A stretch of 41,318 nucleotides of DNA from Clostridium phage slur17. The notes beneath the pieces are model-generated. The model worked only from the letters and a program-made list of their open reading frames with translations, was not told the origin of the DNA and did not search any database. Shown piece by piece: positions 26,490 to 33,860 of the stretch (its first letter is position 1; each line of letters begins with the position of its first letter). Both the position numbers and the translations under genes were made by a program. The stretch is taken from sequence record LN881738.1; one strand, 5' to 3'.

Positions 26490-26555
26490 TTTCCAGCCTC
26501 CTTATTTATTTTTTACTTTTTTTAATTGGTTTAGCGTAGCCGTCAAAGTACGCTT

Positions 26556-26738
26556 TTAACAAATAATTTGTTCTATTTCTTTTACTGCTTCATTTAGTTT
26601 ATTAACATCTAAAATATCATTCTCAACAATGTTTTCTATTGTCTTTGCATTTAAAATACAGTCAACTATTCTTTGCTTTTCCTCACTCATATCTAAGTAC
26701 AAAATTGCATTTCTTAAAATTCTTTCTTCTCTAGTCAT
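26556..26738 (-). CDS. Small early protein divergent from the XRE repressor (possible Cro-like or antirepressor role)
   Basis: 60-aa first ORF of the minus-strand early operon, back-to-back with the plus-strand XRE gene; no clear HTH. Confidence 0.35.
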   Translation of the reverse strand: MTREERILRNAILYLDMSEEKQRIVDCILNAKTIENIVENDILDVNKLNEAVKEIEQIIC

Positions 26739-26910
26739 AGAAACAACCTCCTGACTCCTATTGCGAATATATTTATATTATAGTGCGTAATAAGGGGCAA
26801 GTCAATAACTTTTACTAATTTATTTTCGCAAGACTACGCCCCAATGCGTTTTTTTGCGTTGACTTACGGGCAACTTTACTGTAAAATTAAGCTATGAAAG
26901 GAGTTTTAAA
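26739..26910. promoter_or_regulatory. Divergent promoter/operator region of the lysogeny switch
   Basis: 172-bp gap between divergent genes; GCAAGTCAA (around 26787) and its inverted counterpart TTGACTTAC (around 26863) are candidate operator half-sites; SD AAAGGAG precedes the XRE ATG. Confidence 0.4.
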
Positions 26911-27264
26911 ATGAATACTAGAATTAGAGACTTGCGAATTGCAGAGGGGCTATCTCAAATCGAATTTGGGAACAAGCTAGGAATGACTAGACACGAAATT
27001 TACAATCTTGAAAGTGGAAGAACACGAATAAAAGAAAGTGATTTAAAATTAATAACTTCAACATTTAAGGTAAACGAAAAATGGCTAAAAACAGGCGAAG
27101 GCGATATGTATACTTTTTCAAACAATAACTTAATAACAGCAGAAGTCTTATGCGCAATAGATAAGAATGAACGTCTTGCTAAAGCAATGTTAAAATTTAG
27201 CAAGTTAAATGACAAAGAATTAGAGGCAATGGAAAAGCTACTAGAATTATTTCAAAAAGAATAA
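26911..27264 (+). CDS. XRE-family HTH transcriptional regulator (CI-like repressor candidate)
   Basis: 117 aa; LRIAEGLSQIEFGNKLGMTRHEIYNLESGRT is a typical Cro/C1 HTH; the only plus-strand gene in this region. Confidence 0.85.
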   Translation: MNTRIRDLRIAEGLSQIEFGNKLGMTRHEIYNLESGRTRIKESDLKLITSTFKVNEKWLKTGEGDMYTFSNNNLITAEVLCAIDKNERLAKAMLKFSKLNDKELEAMEKLLELFQKE

Positions 27265-27266
27265 AA

Positions 27267-27296
27267 GGCTATCATCTTAAATTTGATAGTCTTTTC
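27267..27296 (+). terminator. Intrinsic terminator after the XRE gene
   Basis: 8-bp stem (27267-27274 / 27284-27291), 9-nt loop, then TTTT. Confidence 0.5.
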
Positions 27297-27694
27297 ATAT
27301 GTACATATTTATTTTTTAGTTTTTTGCTTTAAATACAGATAAATAATCTCTAATATATCCTTATCCCCTACTTTGTCCAACATTTCTTTTATTTCTTCTT
27401 TCAACCAAATCATCCCCCTATATGCAAGTAGAATAATACATTCTTAAAATTTGTAAAAAAATAACTTACAATTTTAATTATACCCCCTTTTGTTCGATAT
27501 TACAAGAGCACATGTACGATTTTTTGTCGCAATTAAACATTTATACTACAATAATAGTACCTTTTATCAAATTTTGCTAGTGGAAAATAATTCCAATTCA
27601 AAATACATTGAATTTTCTTACATTAGGAAAGTTCAGGGTCAATTTTTTTAACCTTGCGATTTTCCATTTGGTATAAGTTTTATATTTTCACATC

Positions 27695-27760
27695 AAAAAG
27701 TCACGCAAGTAGGAATATATATATATATATATATATTAAATCCTACTTGCGTGACTTTTT
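27695..27760. terminator. Bidirectional hairpin with (AT)n loop, copy 1
   Basis: 15-bp perfect stem GTCACGCAAGTAGGA (27700-27714) / TCCTACTTGCGTGAC (27741-27755) around a 26-nt AT-repeat loop; A5 before and T5 after. Confidence 0.55.
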
Positions 27761-27947
27761 GTTCTTAGATGCAAATTTCTAGTTGCTCTACTAACTCTAT
27801 TTCTTTTTCAATTTTAAATCCTATGTCAAATTCATTGTTTAAAAATGCCTTTTCAATTTCATCTAATTTACTCAATAACCTCTGTTTTCTAGTTTTTATA
27901 GCATTTCTTTAAATATTGTATGCTAATTATGTTTATTTTAATTGATG

Positions 27948-28005
27948 ACTCATTATCAAAAAGTCAGTCGACCTGGAATATATATATATATATATTCCAG
28001 GTCGA
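27948..28005. terminator. Bidirectional hairpin with (AT)n loop, copy 2
   Basis: 15-bp perfect stem GTCAGTCGACCTGGA (27953-27967) / TCCAGGTCGACTGAC (27986-28000) around an 18-nt (AT)9 loop; A5 before and T5 after; 70 bp downstream of the helicase operon's last gene. Confidence 0.55.
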
Positions 28006-28077
28006 CTGACTTTTTGTTTTTAGATGCAAATTTCTAATTGTTCTTTTGATTCTGTTTCTTTTTGATTAAATACAATT

Positions 28078-28425
28078 TTAATCAACTACAATTAATTCTG
28101 CCCCAGCTGGTAAATTAATTTTTATAAGTTCTAGTAAAAGTTGTTTTGAAAGCTCCTCCCTTAAATCCTGTTCTTGATATTGAAGTTCAAAAAAGTACTT
28201 ATCAACTTCTTCATCATAATAAAAATTATACTCATGATATGCCGAATTTTCTTCTAACAATTCTCTGTATCCAAGATTAATGCCTATAGGTATAAATTTA
28301 TCTTTATTTTTTATATCTTTTATGAAATTATCATAGTCATTAAAAGCTCGTATTAAAAGCTCTGAAAACTCATAACTCACACTCACTATATATTTATTTT
28401 TAACTTTAATATCTAATTCAAACAT
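28078..28425 (-). CDS. Hypothetical protein, second gene of the helicase operon
   Basis: 115-aa acidic protein 46 bp downstream of the helicase gene on the same strand. Confidence 0.5.
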   Translation of the reverse strand: MFELDIKVKNKYIVSVSYEFSELLIRAFNDYDNFIKDIKNKDKFIPIGINLGYRELLEENSAYHEYNFYYDEEVDKYFFELQYQEQDLREELSKQLLLELIKINLPAGAELIVVD

Positions 28426-28471
28426 CCTTTTTATCTCCTTATGTAAATATTTTTGAAATTTATTTTTGTCT

Positions 28472-30658
28472 CTACATAAAACCTTTTAATAACAATAGTT
28501 TTTCATCTTCATCTAAAGAGTTCAACATCCTGTCTTTTGTATATTTTATAGCATTTTCTAAACTCTTATCTTTTTCGTCTAATTCTAAATCTTTTTTTAT
28601 GTCATCTACAGTTATATATCTTTTTATATTATTAAGTTGTATTCGTTTTTTTTCAAACTGGCATGATATAGGATTTATATTTTTATAAAAAAACATAGTT
28701 TCTATATCATGCCAGTTACTATATTTTTTCTTTTCTATAATAAAAATTCCATTCAGTGTAACGCTTAGCTTTTTAGTTGTTAAATCCCAGTTTTCCCCTA
28801 AAATTGTTCTTAAGTCGTTACTTAACTCTTGTAAATGCAATTCTTTATAAGATGTTCCAATTCCAAACAATTTATCTATATAATTAAATACTGTAACTTG
28901 AATAAGTTCATCATTTAAAAACTCTGGATATTCCTCTTTTAATTCTCTATATATTAAAGTATTTATTTTATTAAATATTACCCCACGTCTTTTGTTTGCT
29001 GTATTCGCTAGTTTCCAAGCAAGGTCTAAGTCGAACTTATTATCTAGTACATAATTAGAATATAGTTCTAACATGCTATTACTTTTACTTTTCTTTACCA
29101 AATTATGTATGTCATACGCTCTGTAAGCCTCTAAGCACCCTTTTGAACTTAGTTTCATATCATTATGATACTGCATTAGTGAAAAGCTCTTAGAATCGCT
29201 TTTAATCTGTCTATAACCTACTAGAATTTCTTTATGTTCTTTTAAAATTTCTCTTGTTGCATCTTTAATTTCTTTTACAACTTTCTTGTACTCTTTTAAC
29301 TCTTTTTCATTTGTGCCAACTTCTTTAGCATCAGTTATATTAACATTTTCAAAATATTCTTCTAATAACACTTTAAAACTTTGAATTGTTCTTGTATTGT
29401 AATAGTTGCTGTAAACTTGACTTTTTATATATAATTTATCTACTTTATAGCAATTATCTTTTGTACAGTAGTACACATTTGAGTCTATGCGAATTGGCGT
29501 TGCATTTATTCCAACTGTTTCAAACTGTAACATGTGTTTAGATACTTTGTTATAAGCATCTTTTAAGATAGTTGCTTTTTCTATATTTTTGTTAACTAGC
29601 CATTCAATTTTGTATACATTGCACTCTTCTTCATATTTATTGAATATGTGTACATTTACTTTTTTTAAGTTTCTAAACCTTGCAACATACTGTTTTATAG
29701 CTCCAACATCTTTTATATTAACAATAATTATATCTGTGATATCTTTGTTGTTTATATTTACACCAGCTAGGATTGTTGTTGTATTTAAAAGCGTTTCATA
29801 GTCTTTCATGTCTGAATTTTTAACTATTCTATTGTACAATTCATTCTCTTCTTTTCCATCTGCATATACAACTCCAACTTTTTTGTTCACTGAATCTCTT
29901 ATAAATTCTAATGTTGATATATCATTCATCAACATGGCGCTGTTTTTAGATTTATTTATTATGTTAATCATTTCAGTAAAATTTTTATTGTCAAAGTCGT
30001 TGTACAATTTAACTTTATATTCTGTTTTTTGCTTTTGAGTGTACTCTATTATGTAGTCATATATTTCAAATTCAAGTTTTGTTGGTGTTGCTGTAATGTC
30101 TATTCTTCCTTTGCACTTAGACATTATATTATTTAGATTTTTTATTGCTTTTCCTCGATATGCATCTGTATAAGTTTGATGTATTTCATCAACTACAATT
30201 ATGTATTCACTTAAGTCTGTGTTTATAAGTTTTTCAGTTTTATCCCAAGTCATTACAACTAAGTTACCATTTTTAAATGCTTCGCTAACAGGTATTTTGT
30301 CATATGCTCCTGGTATATCATACTCGTGCATTGCCTGCTCCACATTTGAAGCATTTGGAAGTATGAATAACGCTTTTGTTTTTAATTTTTTTAATGTATT
30401 TATAAAGCTATAACTTTTTCCTGCTCCTGTCGGTGCAATAAACAGGGTTTTCCCGCCATTTATCGCGTTGGCTATAGCCGTTTTAATTCCTAGTTTTTTT
30501 TCGTTTATATATTTTTTTATTTCATATGTTTCATGTCTATTGAAATTTGAATAATTTTCTTTTTCATGCTCTGCTCTTTCAGCGCTACATTCTTCTAAAA
30601 ACATCTTATCTATATTATTTTTATTAACATTCTTCATCTTTATCCCTCCAATTTCCAC
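28472..30658 (-). CDS. SF2 (DEAH-type) helicase with uncharacterised C-terminal extension of about 350 aa
   Basis: Walker A FIAPTGAGKSYSF, Walker B/motif II VVDEIH, motif III ITATPT, motif VI-like QYVARFRN in the first ~380 aa; C-terminal half has no motif I recognise. Confidence 0.8.
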   Translation of the reverse strand: MEIGGIKMKNVNKNNIDKMFLEECSAERAEHEKENYSNFNRHETYEIKKYINEKKLGIKTAIANAINGGKTLFIAPTGAGKSYSFINTLKKLKTKALFILPNASNVEQAMHEYDIPGAYDKIPVSEAFKNGNLVVMTWDKTEKLINTDLSEYIIVVDEIHQTYTDAYRGKAIKNLNNIMSKCKGRIDITATPTKLEFEIYDYIIEYTQKQKTEYKVKLYNDFDNKNFTEMINIINKSKNSAMLMNDISTLEFIRDSVNKKVGVVYADGKEENELYNRIVKNSDMKDYETLLNTTTILAGVNINNKDITDIIIVNIKDVGAIKQYVARFRNLKKVNVHIFNKYEEECNVYKIEWLVNKNIEKATILKDAYNKVSKHMLQFETVGINATPIRIDSNVYYCTKDNCYKVDKLYIKSQVYSNYYNTRTIQSFKVLLEEYFENVNITDAKEVGTNEKELKEYKKVVKEIKDATREILKEHKEILVGYRQIKSDSKSFSLMQYHNDMKLSSKGCLEAYRAYDIHNLVKKSKSNSMLELYSNYVLDNKFDLDLAWKLANTANKRRGVIFNKINTLIYRELKEEYPEFLNDELIQVTVFNYIDKLFGIGTSYKELHLQELSNDLRTILGENWDLTTKKLSVTLNGIFIIEKKKYSNWHDIETMFFYKNINPISCQFEKKRIQLNNIKRYITVDDIKKDLELDEKDKSLENAIKYTKDRMLNSLDEDEKLLLLKGFM

Positions 30659-32312: not shown

Positions 32313-32399
32313 CTTTTTCTATAAAAGAAGGTTGCTTTTTTTCTTAGCCTTCTTTTTTTTAAATTTTACTATAATATAAAAATATTACTGTAATATTAT

Positions 32400-32585
32400 A
32401 AAAATATTATTTTAGTATTGTATATACAATATTTTAGTATTTTTAATATAATATATTGGTATTGTAAAAGCAATATGTAAATATTGTATTTATATTATTT
32501 GAATATTGTAATTAACAATATTAATATATTGTTGCAATATTATAAAAACAATACTACAATATTATTATAATATTATAAATATAAT
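32400..32585. repeat. AATATTGT-type repeat array upstream of parA (centromere/operator-like)
   Basis: Many direct and inverted copies of AATATTGTA / TACAATATT, e.g. AGTATTGTATATACAATATT, GAATATTGTAATTAACAATATT. Confidence 0.55.
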
Positions 32586-32591
32586 AATGAG

Positions 32592-33743: not shown

Positions 33744-33749
33744 ATAATA

Positions 33750-33860
33750 TTATATTTATATTGTTTAGATATTACTTAAATATTGTATATATAATATTTA
33801 AGTAATATTTTAATATTATTATTACAATATATTAATATTGTTTAAATAATATGTTTTAAC
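33750..33860. repeat. Second AATATTGT-type repeat array, downstream of the partition genes
   Basis: AAATATTGTATATATAATATTT and TACAATATATTAATATTGTTTAAA; same motif family as the array upstream of parA. Confidence 0.5.

Follow-up and report, generated by a model that had tools for sequence, protein, structure and literature searches.

Between the cI-like regulatory gene and the helicase operon of Clostridium phage slur17 (sequence record LN881738.1; 41,318 nucleotides, the whole of which is called the window here and is read on the reverse complement of the GenBank orientation) stand two long hairpins, each centred on a run of AT repeats. What are these elements, and how did two of them come to stand side by side? 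Our analysis suggests that each hairpin is probably both a bidirectional intrinsic terminator and a recombination-prone palindrome. The two hairpins and their AT tracts are as follows.

27694-27761: hairpin 1, composed of C-A5, the arm GTCACGCAAGTAGGA, (AT)11, TAAA, TCCTACTTGCGTGAC and T5-G, with C-A5-GTCACGCAAGTAGGA at 27694-27714 and TCCTACTTGCGTGAC-T5-G at 27741-27761
27715-27736: the (AT)11 tract of hairpin 1
27957-28016: hairpin 2, composed of C-A5, the arm GTCAGTCGACCTGGA, (AT)9, TCCAGGTCGACTGAC and T5-G, with C-A5-GTCAGTCGACCTGGA at 27957-27977 and TCCAGGTCGACTGAC-T5-G at 27996-28016
27978-27995: the (AT)9 tract of hairpin 2

The sequence-only reading had described two equivalent AT-loop hairpins with A5 before and T5 after, and this description is confirmed by the sequence, by folding and by shuffling. 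Counting the C-A5 and T5-G flanks but leaving out the AT tract, each stem comprises 21 perfect pairs, and hairpin 2 as a whole is a 60-nt perfect palindrome (100%). The 15-nt arms are G+C-rich, with 8-9 G or C each, and those of the two hairpins differ at seven of eight central positions (CGCAAGTA vs GTCGACCT). The hairpin pattern matched twice in the window against 0.00 matches expected from shuffles, as did the pattern of a 21-nt box beside each hairpin. RNA folding of either strand gave -39 to -45 kcal/mol (z -11 to -13), a value that none of 200 shuffles equalled, DNA folding gave z scores of -14 and -16, and the two hairpins are the only perfect inverted repeats of at least 20 nt in the window. 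A box of about 25 nt had been said to follow each hairpin; it is present at both, although the similarity between the copies extends further: to the right a direct repeat runs for 86 nt at 80% identity, and to the left the copies share ATC. In a search of positions 26500-28600 against Rfam 15 (E<=10) there was no match at gathering score; the best matches were to eukaryotic microRNA precursors, below threshold (at most 44.6 bits against thresholds of 76-119), and reflect any long AU-rich hairpin.

If the hairpins function as structures, their pairing should be kept in relatives. Over the 3 kb around them the window matches Clostridium phage CDSH1 (KU057941) at 100% and phiCD38-2, phiCD146 and AR1075-1 at 99.5% identity; all four are Leicestervirus siphophages of Clostridioides difficile, and circular C. 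difficile plasmid records are also near-identical to the window phage. phiCD38-2 is a circular plasmid prophage with a ParA homologue (10.1101/2023.08.24.554564; PMC7699646). Comparison of related genomes found zero to four such hairpins, all at the same locus: one in JD033, phiCD111, phiCD08011, CD2301, locus L024 and the Sherbrookevirus phages phiCDHM13, phiCDHM14 and phiMMP04; two in the window type and L020; three in Hain-Saunders-2022a (L011); four in a row in IMG/VR contig L017; one plus a half hairpin in L034; and no AT-centred palindrome in JD032. True members were confined to C. difficile phages, phage-plasmids and one C. difficile genome contig among the phage, plasmid, IMG/VR, metagenome and genome collections, with the proviso that the genome and metagenome scans required the adjoining box and that box-less copies would escape them. 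Those scans, for CTTTTTG-N6-12-CAAATTTCTARTTG, returned 24 metagenome and 10 genome loci, with a hairpin in C. difficile CD160 only and chance matches in the rest. A scan of IMG/VR for the hairpin ends returned 17 loci, eight of them real, and a scan of the same collection with the helicase C-terminal peptide gained one new stem variant.

We counted 13 distinct stems, of which ten begin with GTCA and four with GCC, one pair being near-identical. Covariation was measured in the ten GTCA-type stems, on the outermost 21 nt of both arms as read from the loci, without the centre. Indeed, 97% of the cells were standard pairs, compared to 34-50% when the partner was slid by one to three columns; nine of the ten variable stem pairs had changed on both sides, and the covariation score was reached by none of 500 shuffles. 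The pairing of the stem is therefore selected for, or else restored by a palindrome-specific mechanism, and the proposal that structure was kept while the stem sequence diverged is borne out by this covariation across ten variants. No GTCA-type member departs from the C-A5 and T5-G flanks, and the four GCC-type stems are also self-complementary through the G+C-rich arm. A strand asymmetry in G-U pairs could be looked for in only two imperfect members, which were nearly symmetric. We also considered whether the stem is hypervariable and rejected this: among the cI-proximal hairpins mean identity was 63% in the stem arm and 71% in the next 30 nt, the block upstream (90%) being the unusual one. 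Since the arm lies near its neighbouring sequence in identity, the stems evolve roughly as unconstrained sequence with compensation.

What this structure may do depends on the genes around it.

26911-27264, plus strand: cI-like helix-turn-helix regulator, annotated as CI repressor, running toward the hairpins and convergent with the helicase operon
27309-27413, minus strand: 34-aa open reading frame (ORF; gp38), beyond hairpin 1
28078-28425, minus strand: 115-aa gene (phiCD38-2 gp36), between the helicase and a relic of a helicase gene end (relic 2, listed below)
28472-30658, minus strand: helicase (DEAD/ResIII, 728 aa), ending in ...LDEDEKLLLLKGFM*

On the minus strand the order is helicase, 115-aa gene, hairpin 2, a 36-aa ORF, hairpin 1 and the 34-aa ORF, and in the full map of phiCD38-2 gp34-gp38 form one unit, convergent with gp39 (cI), beyond which lies the divergent switch region. 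The hairpins therefore occupy a convergent junction, and the gene map agrees with the earlier statement that they separate the lysogeny-control gene from the helicase operon. RNA-seq of CDHS-1 infection, with timing at the gene level, placed both a Cro/CI-type regulator and the helicase among the early genes (PMC8619979), so both units are active together. The cI-like gene also has a hairpin of its own directly after its stop codon, at 27266-27294 (AAGGCTATCA-N9-TGATAGTCTT, then TTC), which is better on the plus strand because of one G-T pair and which gave a weak, sub-threshold Rfam match to the Enterococcus small RNA A9 (31.6 bits).

At this junction the hairpins have the features of intrinsic terminators: a G+C-rich stem-loop followed by a U-rich tract, a position after a stop codon and a pairing that is maintained; those of a bidirectional terminator are found as well, with convergent units on both sides and a U-tract on both strands. 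They are placed after the last genes of the helicase unit. Hairpin 2 was called as a terminator on both strands, with the tails TTTTTGTTTT and TTTTTGATAA, and hairpin 1, whose tails TTTTTGTTCT and TTTTTGATGT are of the same T5-G-T-rich type, was missed by the terminator scanner because its centre is asymmetric. Within the 3-kb region there were seven terminator-like calls, six of them registers of hairpin 2, compared to 0.7 expected. While the structure, covariation and position of the hairpins, the gene-end relics and the footprints of recombination can be read from the genomes directly, we infer that transcription actually stops there. In the mechanism that we propose, minus-strand transcription of the helicase operon (helicase, 115-aa gene and relics) would meet plus-strand transcription from the cI side at the hairpins. 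In RNA of either strand the arms would pair and, together with the (AU)n centre, give a helix of about 30 bp; a U5-G-U-rich stretch would come next, the A5 tract of one strand becoming the U5 tract of the other. The ancestral state was probably a hairpin directly after the helicase stop codon (...EQLEICI*).

Support for a terminator at this position also comes from JD032. Its locus (L079, 2655-2700) is a clean deletion of the AT palindrome that joins CGTAGGGT-N10-ACCCTACG to CCTTTTTG plus the box, and CGTAGGGT-N10-ACCCTACG is itself a hairpin of 8 bp, flanked by A6 and T5, at the same position. With a conventional terminator-like hairpin in the same spot, the long palindrome is dispensable and a hairpin there is kept. 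Several points weigh the other way. The 14-28-nt (AT)n centre and the up to four hairpins of L017 exceed what termination needs; the cI-like gene is followed more closely by another hairpin (27266-27294), which would leave hairpin 1 as only a backstop for cI; the stems are perfect Watson-Crick, almost without G-U, which fits a bidirectional terminator and a DNA-level palindrome equally; and a G interrupts the U-tract after only five U. The other terminator-like sites in the window have stems of 9-15 bp and loops of 4-7 nt, and the AT centre therefore looks like an extra. We suggest that the centre is self-perpetuating, as (AT)n is self-complementary, expands by slippage and costs the hairpin nothing. 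A bidirectional terminator prone to slippage and recombination, as first proposed from the sequence, is the best-supported reading in silico, although the box and the 36-aa ORF that went with that proposal have had to be reinterpreted.

Bidirectional Rho-independent terminators between convergent genes have been described genome-wide in E. coli and other bacteria. The phage hairpins share with them a G+C-rich stem between an A-tract and a T-tract, a place between convergent units, and Watson-Crick-only pairs that keep the stem valid on both strands. They depart from them in a helix of about 30 bp with an (AU)n centre, rather than the short stems and loops found elsewhere in the window, in a centre that is a length-polymorphic microsatellite, and in relatives with tandem arrays of up to four. 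On this reading the phage hairpins are ordinary terminators that form a family confined to one locus; their AT-microsatellite centre is unusual, and their history of recombination is clear. In Sherbrookevirus (L007, L008 and L012) we observed a second hairpin to the left of the AT hairpin, CTGTAGGGT-N11-ACCCTACAG, followed by T5 on the helicase strand; helicase-sense transcription there meets two terminator-like hairpins in series, and the window has a degenerate version of the second one at 27636-27658.

Hairpin 1 also adjoins a non-coding block whose conservation bears on an RNA-level alternative.

27470-27665: nearly invariant non-coding block in 12 loci from Leicestervirus and Sherbrookevirus, with back-to-back promoter-like sites
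27524-27529 (-35) and 27547-27552 (-10), plus strand: promoter-like site TTGTCG-17-TACAAT, directed toward hairpin 1
27505-27500 (-35) and 27482-27477 (-10), minus strand: promoter-like site TTGTAA-17-TATAAT, directed toward the 34-aa gp38 ORF

Across the 12 loci the -35 and -10 elements of the block are fully or nearly fully conserved. Inverted repeats in the block are conserved as well, AATTCAA-N7-TTGAATT at about 27596-27616 and CAGGGT-N11-ACCTTG at 27636-27658. A second plus-strand transcript may come from the promoter-like site at 27524-27552, and it is conceivable that this yields an RNA of about 200 nt with its end at hairpin 1. The block is a candidate second regulatory region, or a candidate source of a non-coding RNA that ends at hairpin 1, and it is a possibility that hairpin 1 would terminate such an RNA as well as cI read-through.

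Could the hairpin then be the 3' module of a non-coding RNA that starts at the plus-strand promoter-like site (at about 27559), and a point at which RNase III or antisense pairing controls helicase expression, copy number or incompatibility? The idea rests on the helicase mRNA sharing the palindrome as its end, such that the convergent RNAs would be complementary across a lineage-specific stem. Besides the near-invariance of the block in two genera, it draws on the lack of any ORF between the promoter-like site and hairpin 1 and on stems that differ among related phage-plasmids while the flanks are conserved. The helix that RNase III cleavage needs is shorter than about 30 bp, and that of the hairpins exceeds it. 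The long hairpin distal to a gene 3' end is also known from the lambda sib/tI retroregulator, which the phage hairpins resemble in lying past a gene 3' end and in being a potential terminator and RNase III substrate; antitermination-dependent read-through and RNase III cleavage are features of lambda, however, and the resemblance may serve here only as a lead. Nevertheless, we consider an RNA control module unlikely, given that the promoter is only putative, that no Rfam family was matched, that consensus folding of the block gave weak structure with almost no covariation, that arrays of two to four different stems per phage are unlike a single specificity determinant, and that JD032 has no variable stem. 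The more specific proposal, that the stem sequence sets the specificity of RNA-RNA or RNase III control of the helicase level and hence of copy number or incompatibility, is highly doubtful; were it true, diversification and reassortment of the stems would create new specificity groups.

Alternatively, the palindromes might act as DNA, as a replication origin of the plasmid prophage or a helicase-loading or cruciform site, with the AT centre as the melting or extrusion point and the array analogous to the ori repeats beside a replication gene. Dairy phages use non-coding repeats downstream of their replication genes as ori. Extrachromosomal elements of C. difficile like this plasmid prophage have no known origin (PMC6807378), and the hairpins adjoin the helicase gene, are perfect Watson-Crick palindromes with strongly negative DNA folding scores (z as above), have AT-rich centres and occur in one to four copies in relatives. 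However, the element is lost entirely from JD032, an isolated viable phage; its stem sequence is independent of the helicase allele; replicons that are 99% identical differ freely in the number of copies and in the stems they carry; it always abuts a stop codon and always carries A5 and T5; and AT-only clusters near parA (32360-32590 and 33747-33852) are at least equal candidates for an origin or centromere. GC skew had no origin signal and is uninformative here, because it follows gene orientation. An origin function for the hairpins is accordingly quite improbable. We separately rejected a helicase-specific site, since one arm was found with helicases only 68% identical.

Returning to the hairpins as probable terminators at gene ends, the sequence beside them explains what the boxes are.

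27765-27908, minus strand: relic 1, the 47-codon frame RNAIKTRKQRLLSKLDEIEKAFLNNEFDIGFKIEKEIELVEQLEICI*, which holds box 1 and the 36-aa ORF
28020-28085, minus strand: relic 2, the 21-codon frame ...NQKETESKEQLEICI*, which holds box 2 and is out of frame with the 115-aa gene

The boxes, TTAGATGCAAATTTCTA(G/A)TTG, occupy 27765-27785 and 28020-28040. On the helicase strand they encode ...EQLEIC(I/V)*, with the stop codon 1-5 nt before every hairpin in all members, and in L011, L017, L034 and L009 EQLEICI* is the end of a helicase frame of 715-776 codons (annotated in L011 and L009 as a DEAD/DEAH helicase or "type III restriction enzyme"). Relic 1 has 89% identity with the helicase C-terminus of L017 and is bounded upstream by a stop codon, and relic frames elsewhere have 5, 16, 20-24, 29 or 59 codons, often with the start codon missing. 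From this comparison relic 1 reads as a truncated 3'-end copy of another helicase allele and relic 2 as a displaced helicase gene end. The window helicase (end ...LDEDEKLLLLKGFM) aligns with ...LDEIEKAFLNN... of the long EQLEICI type and then stops shorter, so that its original end seems to have been displaced by the 115-aa gene. This gene, whose product has no Pfam match, is missing from relatives whose helicase itself ends in EQLEICI*.

Since the box is the 3' coding end of the helicase in four relatives, it loses the status of an independent motif that the sequence-only reading had given it, and is best described, on these alignments, as hitch-hiking helicase coding sequence with no motif function of its own. 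The possible 36-aa minus-strand ORF of that reading does exist (27765-27875, TTG start; gp37 of phiCD38-2) as the part of relic 1 downstream of the first TTG, and is most probably no gene. A real small protein encoded by the ORF and box, the two copies being a duplicated gene-plus-terminator module, would agree with its annotation as gp37 in phiCD38-2 and as a coding sequence in phiCD146, and with a TTG start that has GAGG four bases upstream. Yet the frame continues above that start as RNAIKTRKQRLL..., matching the interior of the helicase C-terminus, the equivalent frames in relatives are cut at the various lengths given above and are often startless, the ORF is uncalled in CDSH1, AR1075-1 and the RefSeq plasmids, and it is lost from JD033 and phiCD111, all of which makes such a protein very improbable. 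In annotation terms, phiCD38-2 gp37 and the equivalent coding sequence of phiCD146 would be pseudogene fragments derived from the 3' end of a helicase gene, and the "conserved box" should not be taken for a regulatory site.

How did such relics come to alternate with hairpins? We propose that a long AT-centred perfect palindrome with conserved edges would, for that reason, be a hot spot for slippage, deletion and unequal recombination between lineages. Recombination may then have left tandem units of a helicase 3' relic and a hairpin, two of them in the window with stems from different lineages. In JD033 and phiCD111 the left flank and stem of hairpin 1 are joined to the right flank of hairpin 2, with the joint before the box in JD033 and inside it in phiCD111, in keeping with two independent homologous deletions between the repeats. 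The relic and box KIEKEIELVEQLEICI* go with stem W1 in the window and with the ACGGGTCTGA stem in L011, while the W2 arm is the left arm of the phiCD08011 hairpin, although the helicases of the two are only 68% identical. Hairpin 1 of L011 (GTCGAGTAGGA) resembles a chimera between the W2 arm and the W1 arm, hairpin 2 of L017 has non-matching arms, and identity to phiCDHM13 shifts from 72% to 84% across the hairpin. In L034 (about 2812-2831; on the same contig as L073, C. difficile CD160) there is half a hairpin, with the left arm CAAAAAGTCAACGGGTCTGA only, followed by the downstream flank (gagccgtaggg...), the AT centre and right arm being deleted. The short spacers of the four-hairpin array in L017 all start with the helicase segment ...D-I-G/E-F-K-I-E-K-E, which fits unequal crossing-over between lineages with different stems; this would also account for the fact that no array carries the same stem twice.

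The AT tract itself has also changed in length. Across the family it measures 14-28 nt, and the comparison of (AT)n length that had been called for gave 18-24 nt in copy 1 and 18-28 nt in copy 2 among genomes otherwise 99.5% identical. The TAAA interruption occurs in either copy: the window has it in copy 1, phiCD146 (L003) in copy 2 and L013 in both. Together with the two between-copy deletions, this range of 18-28 nt bears out the suspicion of a slippage- or recombination-prone site. We also observed that KU057941 and plasmid CP021446 (L014) have equal totals of 41,619 bp with AT tracts of 22/18 and 20/20 nt; the AT and TAAA differences between KU057941 and CP021446 or phiCD146 reflect either real slippage, copy-to-copy conversion or assembly ambiguity.

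Fragile AT-centred palindromes are familiar from bacterial palindrome instability, the template-switch repair of quasipalindromes and human palindromic AT-rich repeats. The phage elements resemble these in their AT-rich centre, their length polymorphism and the rearrangement breakpoints at or in the palindrome (L034, JD032, JD033 and phiCD111), but are only 58-72 bp long and have G+C-rich arms and a plausible selected function in termination. Integron attC sites likewise keep structure while sequence varies, with conserved outer ends and variable-length arrays after short coding segments, whereas the phage elements have no core sites, extrahelical bases or integron integrase, and their segments are relics of one gene end. 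That the units are cassettes at attC-like, structure-specific recombination sites moved by the gp53 integrase or gp55 resolvase homologues is the least credible explanation of all, since the arrays of short ORF-like segments with imperfectly conserved palindromes, the conserved outer ends and variable interiors, the copy number of 0-4 and the recombinase genes in the genome, which might recommend it, are set against "cassettes" that are all relics of one gene end cut at different points, boundaries in which GTTCTTA and GTTTTTA misfit GTTRRRY with no RYYYAAC on the left, perfect stems without extrahelical bases, and crossovers in JD033 and phiCD111 at different positions inside ordinary homology, as expected for homologous and not site-specific recombination. 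An attC-like site was also rejected directly, as the flanks ATCAAAAAG and CTTTTTGTT(C/T)TTA match neither core (R'' RYYYAAC, R' GTTRRRY).

REP/BIME palindromes, which are thought to affect termination and mRNA stability, also lie at gene 3' ends and are sometimes tandem. They are dispersed at many loci with one consensus, in contrast to a phage family at a single locus in one phage group; REP-like dispersal was not seen, with two copies in the window and every true match in the collections at the same locus, box-less copies escaping the genome and metagenome scans.

The locus is a clear case of a palindromic terminator, as we read it, acting as a mosaic joint in phage evolution, with stems, relics of gene ends and the modules on either flank reassorted across two genera of phages. 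Such a hypervariable, slippage-prone spot matters for the assembly, typing and engineering of the therapy phage CDHS-1 and of phiCD38-2, which affects toxin expression. The helix-turn-helix gene at 26911-27264 presumably encodes the protein studied as PtrX. A preprint describes PtrX as the "putative CI repressor" of a prophage like phiCD38-2 and reports that it increases the expression of toxin and flagellar genes (10.1101/2023.08.24.554564).

Two further sets of repeats lie on the helicase side of the hairpins. The first, at 28656-28717, is a large imperfect inverted repeat in the 3' coding part of the helicase, with 29-nt arms that are 86% complementary and a 4-nt spacer. The second consists of the A+T-only clusters of inverted and overlapping repeats on the parA side (32360-32590 and 33747-33852), which include ATATTACTTAAATAT-N10-ATATTTAAGTAATAT at 33769-33808, conserved in L017 and L019, and which are a possible centromere or origin of the plasmid prophage.

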